From Planctomycetota bacterium (GTDB taxonomy: Bacteria > Planctomycetota > UBA8108 > SXIK01): a DNA stretch of 64,000 nucleotides. Shown here one piece after another: positions 21,818 through 60,057 of the stretch (positions are counted from its first letter, which is position 1; every line of letters starts with the position of its first letter). The notes under the pieces are model-generated. The model made no database searches, was not told the DNA's origin, and saw only the letters and a list, made by a program, of their open reading frames with translations. Both the position numbers and the translations under genes were made by a program. The stretch is from assembly GCA_965223265.1 (NCBI GenBank), contig OZ244999.1, positions 1,280,001 to 1,344,000 on the forward strand. The letters run 5' to 3'.

Positions 21818-23077
21818 ATGAGAACGAGACAGACCAGGTGCTTTGTTCAGAGTCCCGCTTTCGGGTTGGCGATCTGTCTGTTGGTCGCTAACTCCTCTGC
21901 GTATGCCGACGGTAAGTACTTCGTCCGTCCCGAGGATCCGAGACCCGGCGAGCCATATCAGCGGGCGTTGATCTTGCACGACAGCGGCAAGGAGTTTCTT
22001 CTTGTCCAGCCACTGGTTGAGGGACCAGCGGACGACTTCGCCTGGGTTGTGCCTGTTCCCAACGTGCAGGCTGTGGGACATCTCGATGCTGATGACGCTG
22101 ACGAGATTTTCTACTACTTGGCTATGTTTTCGCTTCCTGATGCCTTGCGCGTGGGCCGGGTCGTTGCGTTCGTGGTGGTTGGCTTGGGCGCGGTCGTCGC
22201 GTTTTGCCTCAAGCGCAAAGCGATCGCGTGGGGCCTTAGTGTCCTGTTTTTGGTGCTCGGGTGGGAGGCTATGCCATCGCTGAGCCGTCCAGCGGCTAGA
22301 GGTGTCGAAATTGTGGCGGAGGCGCGTGTCGGTGTCTACGACACCAAGATTCTCAAGGCATCCGACCCTTCCGCTCTCAAGTCGTGGTTCGACGAGCATG
22401 GCTTCACGTTCGCCTCGGAGGACGAGAGCGTCTTCCGCGCCTACATCGAGCGCGGTTGGAGTTTTGTCGCCGCGCGCATCGTCGTCGATCAGCCTAAGAA
22501 TCGCGAGGATCTCTCGGAGAGAGGTTGGCTCCAGCCTCTCGCGATTCTGTTCGACACGGACGTGCCGGTTTATCCCTACGCTCTCACGGCGACGCTGGAT
22601 CATGCGGTCAACGTGCAGCTGTACGTTGGATCCTCCCAGCGAGTGACGTCGGCGCCACTGGAGACACAGTTCGCCGGCCGCTTGCCGCGGCTCCCGCCAC
22701 CGTGGCATGACGAAGAGCACGAAGAGCACGAAGAGCACGAAGAGCACGAAGAGCACGAAGAGCACGAAGAGCACGAAGAGCACGAAGAGCACGAAGAGCA
22801 CGAAGAGCACGAAGAGCACGAAGAGCACGAAGAGCACGAAGAGCACGAAGAGCACGAAGAGCACGAAGAAGTGGCCAGGTCAAATTTCGCGGTCACACCC
22901 GGCCTCTACGTCCAGTGGGCGATCGGCGCCGACACGGACCCAGGTGTGATTCGTTTCGAGAACGCGCAGTGGCTCACCACTCTGCAGGCGAAGATTGAAC
23001 CCGGAACAGCGAGCGACGACTTCTTGCTGACGCCAGTCCCTAACGCATCCTTCCAGCGCACGTTGTGGCGCTGGTGA
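21818..23077 (+). CDS. DUF2330-like protein with internal TM hairpin and (EEH)17 tract
   Basis: Signal peptide; QRALI...DFAWVVPVP; VGVYDTKIL...LKSWFDEHGF; YIERGWSFVAAR; LQPL...F...PVYP. Confidence 0.7.
   Translation: MRTRQTRCFVQSPAFGLAICLLVANSSAYADGKYFVRPEDPRPGEPYQRALILHDSGKEFLLVQPLVEGPADDFAWVVPVPNVQAVGHLDADDADEIFYYLAMFSLPDALRVGRVVAFVVVGLGAVVAFCLKRKAIAWGLSVLFLVLGWEAMPSLSRPAARGVEIVAEARVGVYDTKILKASDPSALKSWFDEHGFTFASEDESVFRAYIERGWSFVAARIVVDQPKNREDLSERGWLQPLAILFDTDVPVYPYALTATLDHAVNVQLYVGSSQRVTSAPLETQFAGRLPRLPPPWHDEEHEEHEEHEEHEEHEEHEEHEEHEEHEEHEEHEEHEEHEEHEEHEEHEEHEEVARSNFAVTPGLYVQWAIGADTDPGVIRFENAQWLTTLQAKIEPGTASDDFLLTPVPNASFQRTLWRW
22712..22864 (+). repeat. perfect 9-bp tandem repeat (GAAGAGCAC)x17, in frame
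   Basis: 153 bp = 17 identical units, counted directly. Confidence 0.97.
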
Positions 23078-24447: not shown

Positions 24448-25761
24448 TCAAGACTTAGATAGCCGAGGATTGCGTTTCCAGACCTCTCGCCGAATGCGAT
24501 TTCGGCGCTCTGTGGCCGCCGGGCCGTGAACAACTGCCAGAACTCGACGGAATCCGGATTCCAGCTGCTCAACGCTCATGTTGTCCGGAGTGTACGTCAC
24601 ATCAAGGAGCGTATAGTGCGACCAACCGCGGTAGGGGAGCAAGCGACCGCGCTTCTTCAAACGATGATATAAGGCGGTTCCAGGAAACGGTGTCTGTACG
24701 GTCACCTGAACCTCCGCGAACGGGCTGCCCAGAATGAATTCGGTGAGCGCGTGCAAGGACGCGTCCGTTTCTCCTTCCGCGCCGGCGATGAAGCAGCCAT
24801 TGACTGCGACGCCGGCCTCCTGAATGGCTCGAACGGCGTCGAGCACGCGCTCCATCTCCGCCTGCTTGGCGCCCATACCAGGATAGCGGAAGACGAGCGA
24901 TTCGATGCCGACGAGCAGTTGCACACAGCCAGAGGCGGCCAAGCTTCTGAGCAATTCCGGGCGCTCGCCGATCCGCCAGTCGGCTTCAGTGAAGTAGCGC
25001 GTCTCTGCCGCCCCGAGCACTTCCAAAAGCGGTTCGGGGTCCCTGGGCCCGACGAACGTGCTGTCATCCGCCAGTTCGATCCATGGTTTCGGAGACATCT
25101 CGCAGAGGGCATCGACTTCGGCCTGAATTCGCTCCAGGGGTTTCTCCCGCAGCGGCCCGAGCAGGCGACTCGCGCCGCAAAAGTCGCACGCCATGGTGCA
25201 GCCGCGCTCGGTTTGGAGTGTCCAGCGCGCCGGCTTTCGGACTCCCAAGAGATCGAACCGAGGCATGGGCGCGCGGGACAGATCGAACGCGGCGTCGGCT
25301 CGATAGAGCGTTTTGAGTTCGCCAGCGGCGGCGTCTGACAAGACCTCCTGCCAAACCGATTCGCCGTCGCCGACGGCGACCGCGTCGACCGAGAGCTGAG
25401 CTTCGGCGGAGCAGGTCGTCGCGTGCAGACCACCGATGACTGTGCGAACTCCACGCTCGCGCACCTGACGGCAGAAGGCGTAAGCATCGTTGACGGAGGC
25501 GGTGAGGGCCGAGACCGCGAGGAGGTCGGGCTGCTGGGAAAGGACTGTGTCGAGAAGCTTTTCGGTGTCCTGCGAGCCATCGTGATAGCTGCACTGCCAT
25601 GGCTCGGGAGTCATACCCGCCAATGTCAGCAGACCGAGGGCAGGAAGTTCTTCCAATGCAGCCACTCGCGGCTTGAGTCCGGGCAGCGTCAAGCCGAGTT
25701 CGCGCAGCTCGTCAGAGCAGATGCGCAGACCGGTGAACGGTACGAAGGCGACGTGGGGCAT
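24448..25761 (-). CDS. B12-binding radical SAM protein
   Basis: PALGLLTLAG, IGGLHAT, VGDGE (cobalamin-binding domain); ERGCTMACDFC (CX3CX2C); IGIES; TPFPGTALY. Confidence 0.9.
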   Translation of the reverse strand: MPHVAFVPFTGLRICSDELRELGLTLPGLKPRVAALEELPALGLLTLAGMTPEPWQCSYHDGSQDTEKLLDTVLSQQPDLLAVSALTASVNDAYAFCRQVRERGVRTVIGGLHATTCSAEAQLSVDAVAVGDGESVWQEVLSDAAAGELKTLYRADAAFDLSRAPMPRFDLLGVRKPARWTLQTERGCTMACDFCGASRLLGPLREKPLERIQAEVDALCEMSPKPWIELADDSTFVGPRDPEPLLEVLGAAETRYFTEADWRIGERPELLRSLAASGCVQLLVGIESLVFRYPGMGAKQAEMERVLDAVRAIQEAGVAVNGCFIAGAEGETDASLHALTEFILGSPFAEVQVTVQTPFPGTALYHRLKKRGRLLPYRGWSHYTLLDVTYTPDNMSVEQLESGFRRVLAVVHGPAATERRNRIRREVWKRNPRLSKS

Positions 25762-25810
25762 GGAGGTGTTGTAACGACGCAGGGCGCTTTTGCAAACGCA
25801 GCGTTGGACG

Positions 25811-25930
25811 GAGGCGGAGGCAGAGGCGGAGGCAGAGACAGAGGCAGAGGCGGAGGCAGAGACAGAGGCAGAGGCGGAGGCAGAGACAGAGGCAGAGGCG
25901 GAGGCAGAGACAGAGGCAGAGGCAGAGGCA
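25811..25930 (+). repeat. 20 purine-rich hexamers (GAGGCG/GAGGCA/GAGACA) including four 24-bp higher-order units
   Basis: Read directly; the unit GAGGCGGAGGCAGAGACAGAGGCA repeats at 25823-25918. Confidence 0.92.
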
Positions 25931-25957
25931 GAAGAGACGGGCCGCCCACGCCCACGC
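25913..25957 (+). repeat. left 45-bp direct repeat flanking the four-helix-bundle gene
   Basis: GAGGCAGAGGCAGAGGCAGAAGAGACGGGCCGCCCACGCCCACGC; 42/45 identical to 26543-26587. Confidence 0.9.
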
Positions 25958-26003
25958 TCACGATCGAGTCGGAGCCGGAGAAGATGTGTTGCTTGAGTGG
26001 CGT

Positions 26004-26127
26004 GCGGCGGCGGCTGTGTCGATCTTAACCGCAGCAGAGCCGGCCTCAAGGGTGCCCTCGCTGCGCTCGGCGCTTCGCGCCCTTGACCCCGTCTCTGCTG
26101 CGGTTGGTGGCAGTGAAACGCCGCCGC
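26004..26127 (+). ncRNA. putative structured leader RNA / ssDNA hairpin upstream of the four-helix-bundle gene
   Basis: Nested stems GCGGCGGCG/CGCCGCCGC (26004-12/26119-27), AACCGCAGCAGAG/CTCTGCTGCGGTT (26027-39/26093-105, perfect) and TCAAGGG/CCCTTGA (26046-52/26080-86), capped by CGCTGCGCTCGGCGCTTCGCG. Confidence 0.55.
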
Positions 26128-26172
26128 GTCGTGCGTCGGCGACAGTTCACTGGCCGTTGACCGGAGTCACAC

Positions 26173-26496
26173 ATGAGCTTTCTTGCTCTGGATCACTCTT
26201 TTTGCATCGTCCGTCAGCTGCGTCCTCTTGTCTCGAGCGTTCGTCGTCACGACTCGAAGCTCGCGGCTCAGCTGCGCGACGCTGGTTCGTCCGTGGCACT
26301 CAACCTTGGCGAGGGCAATCGGCGTCAGGGTCGTGACCGCGGACATCTTTGGCGCATCGCTTCGGGCAGCGCTGAAGAGGTGCGCACGGCGCTTCGTGTT
26401 GCCGAAGCTTGGGGCTACATCGATGCATCGCACACCTCTGCGGTGCTCGCGGACATCGATGCGCTGCAGGCGATGCTCTGGAAGCTGACGCACTGA
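26173..26496 (+). CDS. four helix bundle protein (23S rRNA IVP / Avd-like family)
   Basis: LAAQLRDAGSSVALNLGEG, RIASGSAEEVRTAL, AWGYI and AMLWKL match the family pattern (QLRRA..SI..NIAEG; IA.GS..E); GGAG RBS. Confidence 0.9.
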   Translation: MSFLALDHSFCIVRQLRPLVSSVRRHDSKLAAQLRDAGSSVALNLGEGNRRQGRDRGHLWRIASGSAEEVRTALRVAEAWGYIDASHTSAVLADIDALQAMLWKLTH

Positions 26497-26542
26497 GGCG
26501 AGGGCCTCGGGCCCGCTGTGCGTTGTTTAGTGCGGCGGGTTT

Positions 26543-26610
26543 GAGGCGGAGGCAGATGCAGAAGAGACGGGCCGCCGACGCCCACGCAAACGCCCACGCA
26601 AACGCCCACC
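26543..26610 (+). repeat. right direct repeat plus (C/A)ACGC(C/A) hexamers
   Basis: GAGGCGGAGGCAGATGCAGAAGAGACGGGCCGCCGACGCCCACGC followed by AAACGCCCACGCAAACGCCCAC. Confidence 0.9.
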
Positions 26611-26952
26611 GAGGCGAAACTACACAGCCTTTCCTTGGCGCCGTTCGCTTTCCTTGGGCCGCACACTTGGAAGGAGAACTTGTCGACGCGTATCTATGGC
26701 CTGTTCTCCTTACCACGCTGGATGTCGGCGCGACTCGTTCGAGGCACGAAGAACCGCCGGATTCGCTGGTTTCACTTCAGGGGGCGTGCGGGTAGAACGG
26801 ATGGGGCTGACGTCAACGAACTCAAGGCGCTACCTGTCGAGCGCTTTACGATCGGAGAATTGCGGACGCACCGACGGGTCGCCTTCGTTCCCTGACTTCG
26901 GACGCGTTTGCAGGGATGAGAGAGACCGCTAAGGCGGTGATTCGAGGACTTT

Positions 26953-28893
26953 GTGCTGAAACCATTCTTTGCATCCTTTCTTCTCGGGGTCATCTTCCTA
27001 TTCACCGTCAACGATCGGCTTCGAGCACAGAACTTGAGCGTCGTTTCGGTGACACCAGCGCGTCACAGCCTCAGTGCGCCCGTCAACTCGACGATCACCA
27101 TCGAGTTCGACCGGCCACTTTCTCGGGCGACGGTTGTACCAGAAAGCTTTTGGGCGTTCGGTCGCTGGAGTGGGACCGTCTCCGGTACCTACACGTTTTC
27201 TAACGACGATCAGATGGTCGCGCTGGTGCCGGATCGGCCGTTTTCAGCTGGTGAGACCGTCATGGTCATTCTCTCGCATGACCTGCAGGCCACCGACGGA
27301 TCGTTCTTGCGCCAGGCCGGCTACTCGTATCAGTTCTGGACTCGAGCTGCTGCCGCCGCGATGGAATTTCATCGCACCGACGTCCTTTCGACGCGCACGA
27401 CGACGCAGACTAGGACGTACGGAGGTTTTGCATCTGACTTGAACCGCGACGGCTGGCTCGACCTCTCCATGGTCCACGAGGACTCGGCGGATGTGCGCGT
27501 CTTTTTGAACACTGCTGACGGCTCGGGGAGCTTCGAGCCGTTTCTCGAGCCGACGACTCCGGTGGGCGCGGGCGCCAGTCCCAACGAGCCAGCCGACTTC
27601 AACCATGATGGCCACGTAGATGCCTGCGTCGCCAACAGCGCTCACGACACTGTGTCGATTTTGCTCGGTAACGGTGATGGGACTTTTCAGCCGCAGCAAG
27701 TGGTGGACGTGGGTGGAACTCCAAGAGGAGTCGCAGTTCTTGACGCCGACGGAGACGGGGACATCGACATCGTTTCGACGAGCGACACGGAAAGCCACTT
27801 GGCGTATCTGGAGAACGACGGAGCTGGCGTCTTCGCCGATCCCGTTTTCTTCGAAGCTGGCGGTACCCGTCGCGAGTGGGCTCTCGCAGCTAGCGACATG
27901 AATGACGACGGAATCCTCGACTTGGTCGTTGGGAACCGCTCCGGTGGCGGCACATCCGGGGAGATCGTGATCAACCTTGGCAACGGCGACGGCACTTTCA
28001 CCGCGCTTCCTGACGTGCACCTGACGATCGGCCGAGTCTGGATGCTCGTCTGCGGAGATTTGAACGGTGATACCCACGAAGACGTCGCGCTGTGCAACAT
28101 TAACAACAGCAACGCTGCCGTCGGCGGCGCAGCCATCTTGCTAGGTAACGGCGACGGTACTCTGCAGACCGCCGTGGACTACCCGATTTCGAGATTCGAT
28201 CCGACGTCAACAGACCTAGGTGATCTCGATGGTGACGGAGACCTGGACTGGATGGTGGGCGCATCAACTGCACCTGGCCGGTGGTCGATCTTTACGAACG
28301 ACGGGAATGGAGTGTTTACGTTGTTCGAGGAAATCCCTGCGGCGCGTTCAGCTTCGTGCACTCTCATGCTCGACTTCGACAACGACGGCGACCTCGACCT
28401 GGGGCTGGTCGATGAGTTTAGCGACACGGTCACGTTGATGGAAAGCCGTGAGCCTCTGGACTGCAATACAAACGAGATCAGTGATCGCACGGACATCCGG
28501 GACGGGACGAGCCAGGACTGCAACTTGAACGAAATTCCAGACGAGTGTGACATCGAGAGTGACGTATCTGCGGATCTCAACGAAAACGGTGTGCCCGATG
28601 AGTGTGAATTGAACTTCCTTCGCGGCGAGTGCAACGACGACGGCGAAGTCGACGTGTCGGACGCCGTGTGCATTCTCGATTGGCGCTTCGGGAACCTTCC
28701 GGAGCCGAGTTGTGTCGCCGCGACCGACACGAACGGCGACGCCGACGTTGATATTTCCGACGCAATCTGGCTCCTCAATTTTCTGTTTCTGGAAGACACT
28801 CCTCCACCGACCGAGCCGTTCCCCGATTGCGGGCCGAGTTCCTTAGTGGCCGACGATGAGCTGGGATGTGTGGCGTCGATGGACTGTCCGTAG
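26953..28893 (+). CDS. secreted Ig-like (Big_5) + FG-GAP/VCBS repeat protein with DCNxNxxPDEC repeats and dockerin-like tail
   Basis: Signal peptide; VVSVTP...ITIEFDRPL; about seven D(L/F)NxDGxxD repeats; DCNLNEIPDEC; FLRGECNDDGEVDVSDA...DTNGDADVDISDA. Confidence 0.88.
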   Translation: MLKPFFASFLLGVIFLFTVNDRLRAQNLSVVSVTPARHSLSAPVNSTITIEFDRPLSRATVVPESFWAFGRWSGTVSGTYTFSNDDQMVALVPDRPFSAGETVMVILSHDLQATDGSFLRQAGYSYQFWTRAAAAAMEFHRTDVLSTRTTTQTRTYGGFASDLNRDGWLDLSMVHEDSADVRVFLNTADGSGSFEPFLEPTTPVGAGASPNEPADFNHDGHVDACVANSAHDTVSILLGNGDGTFQPQQVVDVGGTPRGVAVLDADGDGDIDIVSTSDTESHLAYLENDGAGVFADPVFFEAGGTRREWALAASDMNDDGILDLVVGNRSGGGTSGEIVINLGNGDGTFTALPDVHLTIGRVWMLVCGDLNGDTHEDVALCNINNSNAAVGGAAILLGNGDGTLQTAVDYPISRFDPTSTDLGDLDGDGDLDWMVGASTAPGRWSIFTNDGNGVFTLFEEIPAARSASCTLMLDFDNDGDLDLGLVDEFSDTVTLMESREPLDCNTNEISDRTDIRDGTSQDCNLNEIPDECDIESDVSADLNENGVPDECELNFLRGECNDDGEVDVSDAVCILDWRFGNLPEPSCVAATDTNGDADVDISDAIWLLNFLFLEDTPPPTEPFPDCGPSSLVADDELGCVASMDCP

Positions 28894-34244: not shown

Positions 34245-34385
34245 GGGGATGACCTGGGCGTTGGTTCGGCGGCGATTCCAATTCCACGGCCGACGATGAT
34301 ACTCGGACGCGCGATCTTGAGAACAGAGGTTACGTGAATCCGTCGAACGAACCGCGCAATTCTGGCGTTGGCAGACCGTCGGGGT

Positions 34386-34660
34386 GAGGAGGAGGCTGAG
34401 TCAGAAGCGGAGTCAGACACAGCGGCGGAGCCAGGGACAGAATCAGAGACAGAGTCAGATGCGGAGACAGATGCAGAATCAGAAACGGAGTCAGACACAG
34501 CGGCGGAGTCAGAATCAGAGACAGAATCAGAAACGGGGTCAGAAGTAGACTCAGACTCAGAGTGTGGGTGCGCCCACGCCCACGCCCACGCCCACGCCCA
34601 CGCCCACGCCCACGCCCTCGCCCTCGCCCTCGCCCTCGCCCACGCCCACGCCCACGCACA
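34386..34660 (+). repeat. bipartite hexamer tract: degenerate GAGTCA/GAGACA/GAATCA run followed by (CGCCCA)7(CGCCCT)4(CGCCCA)3
   Basis: Read directly; intergenic between divergent genes. Confidence 0.9.
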
Positions 34661-59269: not shown

Positions 59270-59806
59270 TTATTTCGTTTCTGGACCGGTTGGCACCACT
59301 GACTGCAGCTTTCGGCGCCTCTTCCAAGTGTGAACTGCGAGGAGCATTCCGCTGACGAGCGCGGTCAGATAACTCGCCAAATGTGCCCACAAATCAGCCA
59401 GGAACAAGGGGTGCTTTGCTTGGGGAACCGCGGATGCGAGCGGTTCAAGGAGAAAGACCTTGCCTGCCTTGGCAAGTCCGAGGCCGACCAGGCCTCCGAG
59501 AAGAGCGCACGTTGCCGTGACAACGAAGACAAGCGTAATTCCTCGATACAGCGATCGTATGGAAAGCTTTGGACGTCTACCGGCACGAGCAGTCGCAGCG
59601 AGGATGACACCGAGAATCAGGCCGAACCACCAGGTCGCGATGACTCCCCAGCCGAGTGCCAACAGCGTCGGGGACTGGGTCTCGAAAACCTGCGGATGTC
59701 CGACGGTGAAATACTCGAGGCAAACTCTGACCGTAATCTGGTCGAGTACGATCCCGTAGAGGACTGTCGCCGCGATGGACAGAACGATGATCGTGAGGGA
59801 TTGCAT
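59270..59806 (-). CDS. conserved four-TM membrane protein
   Basis: YGIVLDQITVRVCLEYFTVGH, WGVIATWW, LWAHLASY; AAGGA RBS. Confidence 0.75.
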   Translation of the reverse strand: MQSLTIIVLSIAATVLYGIVLDQITVRVCLEYFTVGHPQVFETQSPTLLALGWGVIATWWFGLILGVILAATARAGRRPKLSIRSLYRGITLVFVVTATCALLGGLVGLGLAKAGKVFLLEPLASAVPQAKHPLFLADLWAHLASYLTALVSGMLLAVHTWKRRRKLQSVVPTGPETK

Positions 59807-60057
59807 GGCCTGAGTCCTTGTTGAACGCAGCGAGGATGACACCGAGAATCAGGCCGAACCACCAGGTCGCGATGACTCCCCAGCCGAGTGCCAACAGCGT
59901 CGGGGACTGGGTCTCGAAAACCTGCGGATGTCCGACGGTGAAATACTCGAGGCAAACTCTGACCGTAATCTGGTCGAGTACGATCCCGTAGAGGACTGTC
60001 GCCGCGATGGACAGAACGATGATCGTGAGGGATTGCATGGCCTGAGTCCTTGTTGAA
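59594..60057. repeat. 232-bp direct tandem duplication (59594-59825, 59826-60057)
   Basis: Both copies run CGCAGCGAGGATGACACC...GAGTCCTTGTTGAA and appear identical. The duplicated peptide is visible in ORFs 59270-59842 and 59577-60065. Confidence 0.95.

Follow-up and report, generated by a model that had tools for sequence, protein, structure and literature searches.

Proteins of the four-helix-bundle family PF05635 have long been known from intervening sequences (IVS) of ribosomal RNA (rRNA) and, as Avd, from diversity-generating retroelements (DGRs); to our knowledge, no function has been assigned to the free-standing members. Here, a 64,000-nucleotide stretch of the genome of a Planctomycetota bacterium was analyzed (GenBank assembly GCA_965223265.1, contig OZ244999.1, positions 1,280,001 to 1,344,000 of the forward strand, referred to as the window), in which a free-standing gene of this kind lies together with a structured leader between two direct repeats. 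This module, of which about 36 copies are scattered over the genome, resembles a selfish insert of rRNA genes in a free-living form. We estimate a probability of about 60% that it is a solo copy, of a type termed A, of a dispersed family of four-helix-bundle modules bounded by tandem arrays, that is, an IVS-like selfish element proliferating outside rRNA.

The IVS of 23S rRNA, found for example in Coxiella burnetii and Leptospira, is a small structured RNA with an open reading frame (ORF) for a PF05635/S23p protein, and the module has the same components. According to its description, the Coxiella IVS is selfish and patchily distributed, is cut by RNase III, has terminal inverted repeats and carries GACAGAT tandem heptamers just before the S23p ORF in strain-variable number; older proposals of IVS mobility are cited in the same paper (PMC4990558). 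Going by that description, tandem short repeats just before the ORF are common to the Coxiella IVS and the module. In contrast to the IVS, the module exists in dozens of copies outside rRNA, its hairpin lies wholly upstream of the ORF, its arrays are direct and long, and a convergent two-gene form exists. None of 39 copies was located in the only 23S rRNA gene of the genome (2,007,925-2,010,917), which lies outside the window and, with 2,993 nt, covers the whole 2,925-position model of the large-subunit rRNA. Terminal inverted repeats enclosing the ORF were likewise absent from the subfamily formed by type A and its paralog, type B; the hairpin closes upstream.

PF05635 is described as a Pfam family resembling Avd (PMC10053308), and the type A protein has the fold of Avd (TM-score 0.82 to 4dwl), which according to the titles of structure entries acts in complex with a structured RNA. 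The module differs from DGRs in that no reverse transcriptase is encoded nearby, and sequence identity of the type A protein to Avd is 10-13%.

The modules furthermore resemble repetitive extragenic palindromes (REP), bacterial interspersed mosaic elements (BIME) and miniature inverted-repeat transposable elements (MITE) in being dispersed, intergenic, hairpin-bearing, multi-copy and disruptive to short-read assemblies. Unlike MITE and REP sequences, they carry a protein gene under purifying selection, and their ends, as read at seven convergent A/B pairs, show neither inverted repeats nor target duplications; true MITE-like inserts found inside some copies look different. With integron cassettes, which consist of an ORF and an attC site, they share a small ORF joined to an imperfect palindrome, but here the palindrome precedes the ORF and shows G·U pairing on the sense strand, units occur singly or as A/B pairs and not as arrays next to an integrase, although no integrase profile was run, and the hairpin ends do not seem to match the end motifs of attC. 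Short tandem intergenic units are also known from the short tandemly repeated repetitive (STRR) sequences of cyanobacteria, which consist of 7-nt units and have no known function; STRR are not known to be linked to PF05635 genes, and a literature search on this point found nothing relevant.

A dispersed family of array-bounded modules

A search of the 9.18-Mb genome gave 39 PF05635 matches, 36 of which exceed the cut-off. Type A is represented by 17 intact genes including the window copy and by one frameshifted copy (genome position 906,661), type B by 19 intact genes and two broken copies; all intact genes of both types encode exactly 107 amino acids, and A and B proteins are about 50% identical. 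The window region from about 26000 to 26560 was matched at 17 other places, namely the 16 other intact A genes and the frameshifted copy, with 77-86% nucleotide identity; since the matches cover this region, the repeated unit consists of leader, gene and terminator. An initial annotation of the locus had described a 630-bp cassette between direct repeats, a layout resembling integron cassettes; instead of a single cassette peculiar to this place, the locus turned out to be one solo copy of a genome-wide family. In 5' to 3' direction, a module consists of a purine array, often a C-rich array, the leader, the gene, a terminator hairpin, a second purine array and a C-rich array, an order which agrees with the repeat-RNA-protein-repeat unit suggested previously from the window alone.

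The fullest form of the element is a composite of about 1.9 kb in which an A gene and a paralogous B gene stand face-to-face, with arrays at both ends and in the middle; after the A part, composites continue with the reversed B module and further C-rich arrays. Seven convergent A/B pairs were found, the partners lying a few hundred bases apart. Six composites are nearly identical, matching each other at 92-96% over 1.8 kb; their homology stops at the outer arrays, beyond which unrelated host genes follow. The type A copies of these six composites differ by at most 2.5%.

A 23-nt core of the leader hairpin, searched with up to three mismatches, gave 39 matches in the genome; 35 of these immediately precede a four-helix-bundle gene with which they share the strand, and the other four stand alone. 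Leader-like sequences without an intact gene occur at genome positions 1008705-1008883, 5573647-5573848, 8664772-8664940 and 8743607-8743656, one of them adjoining a weak gene remnant (1008479-1008634). They are likely to be decayed modules.

Genome-wide, 173 strict period-6 tracts were detected in 111 loci. Such a tract lies within 1 kb of 22 of the 39 genes; in 200 random sets the mean was 1.1 and the highest value 5, a control which is generous as it includes coding DNA. A looser pattern, (RGANNC) repeated at least five times, occurred 146 times, and 22 of 32 gene loci had such an array no more than 800 nt away. The hexamer tracts that were to be sought beside other four-helix-bundle genes are thus present. 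Array orientation was fixed in all 43 array-gene pairs, in sense to A genes (28/28) and in antisense to B genes (15/15). In the array unit G-A-N-N-C-R, positions G1, A2 and C5 are invariant and positions 3 and 4 vary, and the same three positions are invariant in the arrays of a Sandaracinaceae genome. Slippage alone should not produce a tract which keeps G1, A2 and C5 while 3 and 4 vary. The direct arrays reach about 430 nt. Both their length and their unit differ between nearly identical composites, and in one of these the left array is all but missing; the turnover of arrays is therefore faster than that of modules, and arrays probably expand from terminal units.

Anatomy of the window copy, its leader and its protein

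All features of the window copy are read on the forward strand. The left array (25811-25932) is of the purine type with the unit G-A-G-R-C-R and comprises 20.3 copies of period 6 over 122 nt, as determined with Tandem Repeats Finder (TRF); in register, G1, A2 and C5 each have a frequency of 1.00, while positions 4 and 6 vary. Its 3' end is overlapped by the left direct repeat (25913-25962, the 50-nt reference copy of repeat family D2), in which the purine array ends and, after a junction, a short C-rich array follows, the latter (25943-25962) also of period 6 by TRF. The right direct repeat (26543-26592, family D2) comprises a short purine array, which passes through a junction into the beginning of a C-rich array of CGCCCA/CGCAAA units (26573-26609; TRF: 6.2 copies of period 6, or 2.7 copies of period 12 with 100% match). 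The two repeats are 90% identical across 50 nt at a spacing of 630 bp; in a 45-nt version, 42 of 45 positions agree when counted by eye. They represent the purine-to-C-rich array junctions that flank this solo A module to the left and to the right. The exact 16-nt core of the repeats occurs just twice in the 9,179,496 bases searched, both times at this locus, and was rejected as a family-wide site; the core spacer, which the initial annotation suggested looking for at other such genes, is the local form of the array junction.

A third purine-to-C-rich array pair was observed at window positions 34380-34660, between two divergent genes and without a four-helix-bundle gene or leader. It starts with irregular purine units of period 6 to period 36, which are followed by 14.5 copies of CGCCCA, and may be a solo junction.

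Between the repeats, a conserved structured 5' leader (25988-26175) reaches to the start codon. It was matched by the leader covariance model R1 at genome positions 1305988-1306175 with 185.1 bits and an E-value of 5.1e-48. Its main element is a rod-like nested hairpin (26004-26127) made of an outer GC stem, a co-varying middle stem and an invariant apical stem-loop. The predicted folding energy is -81.3 kcal/mol (z -7.5; none of 200 shuffles was equally good), that of the opposite strand -69.8 kcal/mol (z -4.4). A GGAG ribosome-binding motif (26163-26166), 7 nt 5' of the ATG, is invariant in all 31 aligned leaders. The type A gene (26173-26496) is followed by a terminator-like GC hairpin and UUUG (26505-26546; -30.3 kcal/mol, z -3.8), and such a hairpin follows every type A copy. 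No canonical terminator was called within 25600-26800, the consensus scan missing the hairpin because its T run is short. Repeats, hairpin and ORF were confirmed where the initial annotation had placed them; the terminator-like hairpin is an additional part which that annotation had not named.

The leader alignment comprised 31 sequences, 16 from type A, 14 from type B and one from G007, a genome of another family in the same order. Nine copies of the window genome were left out: two broken copies with lost or decayed leader, five B leaders with replaced left half, one truncated leader and one with a MITE-like insert. The leader is about 170 nt long, and its consensus rod has 35 pairs in five helices. 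Pairing was found in 97.0% of the cells as compared to 33-58% after sliding the partner columns. Double-sided changes affect 12 of the 35 pairs, ten of them within the 13-pair middle helix (helix 2), and several distinct variants of the middle stem exist within type A. The covariation score was 0.281 as compared to 0.119 and was not reached by any of 500 shuffles. A covarying leader at the other four-helix-bundle genes, the second feature to be looked for, was thereby established. On the sense strand, non-Watson-Crick cells were G·U in 93 and A·C in 9 cases; R1 scored sense copies with 144-195 bits and the opposite strand with 27-35 bits. No variation among A, B and G007 was seen in the apical stem-loop, the GGAG site or the start codon. 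By these pairing statistics the leader folds on the sense strand, and the best reading is that of a transcribed 5' leader; the 35-pair rod would be a plausible substrate of RNase III. A search of window positions 25000-27500 against Rfam (4,227 families) gave no match at E ≤ 1, and a known RNA family was rejected on these grounds.

The 107-amino-acid ORF matches PF05635 with 53.9 bits (E 2.4e-14; curated cut-off 33.8) and TIGR02436, "four helix bundle protein", with 56.1 bits (cut-off 24). The AlphaFold model of the type A protein has a mean confidence (pLDDT) of 96.4 and four helices (residues 4-24, 28-50, 53-80, and 85-106). In comparison with 2gsc and 2rld, two structures of the S23p family, TM-scores of 0.85-0.88 were obtained, and the DGR ribonucleoprotein 8ub7 gave 0.81, the score to Avd being given above; a sequence profile found 2gsc with an E-value of 1.8e-12. 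The fold similar to Avd and IVS proteins, suggested initially from the translation, is supported by these matches. Solved relatives contain five chains per structure entry, and the Xanthomonas protein is described as a homopentamer (PMC4990558).

The neighbors of the module are a minus-strand gene encoding a B12-binding radical SAM protein and a gene encoding an FG-GAP repeat protein. The vicinity had been described as free of rRNA, reverse transcriptase and transposase genes. For the first two this holds throughout the window; for transposases it holds for the four neighboring ORFs scanned, a systematic search not having been made. Elsewhere in the window, a perfect 9-nt repeat of 17.8 copies (22710-22869) lies inside a gene for a DUF2330 protein (21818-23077) and encodes an (HEE)n run, and a 232-nt unit is perfectly duplicated in tandem at 59594-60057 (2.0 copies, 100% match).

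Relatives in other genomes and other repeated elements

In three genomes of the same family, no homolog was found at E ≤ 1e-5. G007 contained 15 copies with leader and purine arrays, many of them at contig ends. A search of a genome collection gave 20 loci; ten appear to be from Myxococcota, and the other ten seem to belong to G007 and were not counted as independent. Copies in a Sandaracinaceae genome are 46-49% identical. There, the order starts with a (GAYWCG)n array and a long hairpin, continues with the gene, a small hairpin and a second array, and ends with a reversed paralog, which has its own hairpin, and a third array; all arrays point one way. Convergent pairs recur in this and in a second Myxococcota genome, and copies from Polyangiales are preceded by a YGACCG-type array of 18 to 40 units. 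The R1 model matched Sandaracinaceae hairpins weakly (E 4.2e-5, 8.4e-4, and 3.8e-3). By arrangement of these sequences, the same layout occurs in Myxococcota.

Of 201 genomes sampled from the phylum, 111 contained PF05635, often in multiple copies. We examined 30 loci, one per genome, which as best-scoring matches stand for the family's canonical form rather than for a random sample. At 28 of these loci, an array with a period of 6-9 and at least 3.4 copies was located within 100 nt of the gene; 44 arrays lay within this distance and 24 in the remaining flanks, corresponding to a 15-fold density. Arrays stood on both sides at 22 loci, 13 of them inverted with reverse-complement units, four direct and five unclear. 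In carrying inverted arrays (13 of the 22 two-sided loci), the canonical relatives differ from the A/B modules; such arrays could base-pair so that the ORF is enclosed by a stem, as in rRNA IVS. The units at canonical loci are mostly 7 nt long and typically present in 4-5 copies, AGTTGTT or a rotation of it recurring in several genomes. In the full-text literature (subscription journals not covered), no link of PF05635 genes outside rRNA to flanking tandem arrays was found; the heptamers of the Coxiella IVS were the sole related observation.

Several other repeated elements occur in the genome. An element of about 2.7-3.0 kb, present in six copies with 98-99.8% identity, encodes a large serine recombinase of 702 amino acids with the domains Resolvase (PF00239), Recombinase (PF07508) and Zn_ribbon_recom (PF13408). 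One copy is located at genome positions 7186418-7189150, the others near 2581199, 6779080, 8597592, 8835385, and 8979330. All six adjoin a type B leader at the identical point and replace the outer half of the leader; as the B genes next to them are from different B subclades, a site-specific mode of insertion into leader DNA is suggested. A MITE-like repeat of about 220 nt with imperfect terminal inverted repeats lies inside the array between A and B of composites (8303700-8303930). It occurs at no fewer than nine other sites, e.g. near 4659611, 8354389, 1761399, and 967110, and was found in both orientations in otherwise nearly identical composites. Another insert of about 160 nt, with terminal inverted repeats and a duplicated TTAAC at its flanks, splits the leader hairpin of the A copy at 4913149 (approximately 4913480-4913650). 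A REP-like hairpin motif, searched with a 12-nt seed and at most one mismatch, occurs about 395 times (216 and 179 per strand; e.g. at 7449000-7450300), often among C-rich arrays and once as five tandem units of about 147 nt.

The only reverse transcriptase matches of the genome (PF00078) are four ORFs of 449-455 amino acids at 1895554, 3424405, 3516453, and 5913461, corresponding to 1.90, 3.42, 3.52, and 5.91 Mb. They are far from every copy, and a DGR was rejected for this reason. The identical scores of the four ORFs suggest a multi-copy retroelement such as a group II intron.

Mobility, competing explanations and significance

A number of observations weigh against the reading of the module as a selfish proliferating element. 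It encodes no recombinase, and at the boundaries of the seven convergent A/B pairs neither a target-site duplication nor a terminal inverted repeat was seen. No empty site was found, and the flanking genes show no synteny in relatives to which the locus could be compared: the radical SAM neighbor has 42%-identical matches in two of four relatives searched, the FG-GAP neighbor domain-level matches only. The contigs of four sequencing runs from one study end at 25802 and resume at 26580; they contain no deletion or circle joint, but they break at the arrays and cannot show rare forms. In the A/B subfamily, an IVS-type stem enclosing the ORF is impossible, because the arrays are direct and not inverted. 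At about 90 of the 111 loci with strict tracts, there is no four-helix-bundle gene closer than 1.5 kb; arrays are thus more widespread than the genes and not exclusive to modules. With respect to the RNA, a sigma-70 consensus scan of 25600-26800 called no promoter, a consensus which may not suit the phylum. We infer transcription of the leader, the 5' end of the transcript and any processing from sequence, and, as much of the leader covariation separates A from B, independent events of covariation should be fewer than the cell counts imply. Additionally, neither the A nor the B protein matched PADLOC, and no functional lead was obtained; a defense system was rejected on this result.

If the module is an IVS-like selfish element, the leader would be transcribed, and its rod would be cut by a double-strand RNase similar to RNase III and/or bound by the oligomeric protein. 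The interaction of protein and leader could then result in autoregulation or in an RNA-protein particle. Avd, a protein of identical fold, acts as part of an RNA-protein complex; that the module protein binds the leader or the arrays is a tentative suggestion which we rate at somewhat less than even odds. The arrays may represent a signal with GA..C periodicity, the length of which changes in both directions by slippage, and may serve as a platform for protein binding or as an insulator from host transcription. The C-rich tracts of one strand and the pyrimidine-rich tracts of the other are poor in G, a trait of Rho-loading sites as well, which might hint at insulation. Whole modules might be dispersed by duplication, for which an enzyme supplied in trans or recombination between arrays would be required.

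A different explanation would be a resident, non-mobile multigene family of the host encoding small paralogous nucleic-acid-binding proteins, in which the leaders act as cis-regulatory 5' untranslated regions and the arrays as hypermutable contingency tracts which tune or insulate expression. Substitution rates fit this explanation. The ratio of nonsynonymous to synonymous substitutions (dN/dS) among paralogs was 0.14 in 136 pairs of A genes and 0.13 in 171 pairs of B genes, with a dS of about 0.55-0.62; these low ratios indicate that copies are under purifying selection, and at such a dS each copy must have been kept functional over a long term. Furthermore, a leader with a GGAG site and a start codon resembles an ordinary regulated 5' untranslated region, and the heptamers before the S23p ORF vary in number among the Coxiella strains described (PMC4990558). 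A resident family, however, does not readily account for nearly identical 1.9-kb composites in unrelated contexts, nor for a patchy distribution with bursts of 15 to 39 copies per genome and no homolog found in genomes of the same family; copies at the contig ends of draft genomes behave like repeats, and broken copies and solo leader remnants exist. We consider this explanation unlikely, though it deserves to be kept in mind.

One possibility raised by the initial annotation is a minimal excisable cassette: recombination between the direct repeats of about 50 bp would release a 630-bp circle with hairpin and gene, which could re-enter at another repeat. The repeats are real and 90% identical, gene-less purine-to-C-rich junctions such as that at 34380-34660 resemble excision remnants, and the 111 tract loci could provide landing sites. 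The uniqueness of the exact core, however, means that no specific site is shared, and array units which differ between nearly identical modules fit poorly to site-specific exchange. One composite is intact with almost no left array, and the contigs of the four runs contain no joint, a weak test given their breaks at the arrays. An excisable cassette therefore appears improbable.

Still less probable is that the hairpin is a DNA recombination site of the att or attC kind and the units are integron-like cassettes. The six serine recombinase copies which abut the type B leader at one point show that leader DNA is used as a recombinase target. Against a DNA site stand the excess of G·U over A·C mismatches in the stem on the sense strand, the five-fold difference between sense and antisense model scores and the inclusion of the GGAG site and the start codon in the conserved block; moreover, the window copy and most other copies have no recombinase nearby, and cassette arrays with repeated attC-type sites were not found. 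Coding arrays, in which GAN-NCR units would encode [DE][STAP] dipeptide repeats of a small protein or protein tail, are hardly credible: the invariant G1, A2 and C5 with variable positions 3, 4 and 6 would fit a codon pattern and an ORF (25790-25996) spans the window array, but 5- and 7-nt units break the frame within arrays, the frame relation of purine and C-rich parts varies between copies, arrays begin after the stop codons of upstream host genes, and type B genes have them on the opposite strand.

The IVS-like selfish module, which we prefer, is new in several respects: it is located outside rRNA, has direct hexamer arrays, carries a leader absent from Rfam and forms a two-gene composite. 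A far-reaching extension, which we regard as speculative and rather doubtful, is a selfish RNA-protein element of two genes that crosses phyla, whose Avd-like oligomers would recognize the leader RNA and the G-A-N-N-C-R arrays and thereby be processed out of host transcripts, persist and spread. If true, PF05635 genes in general would be the cargo of modules bounded by tandem arrays, the IVS of rRNA would be a special case which landed in rRNA, and the partnership of Avd and RNA in DGRs would be a recruited relative.

In practical terms, modules and arrays break short-read assemblies, and the leader is a multi-copy target of the serine recombinase element. For the family, free-standing PF05635 genes gain a defined anatomy with a co-varying leader, arrays of a periodic motif and a composite found in two phyla. 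A "hypothetical four-helix-bundle protein" thereby becomes a testable RNA-protein element, and a possible origin for the intervening sequences of rRNA is provided.

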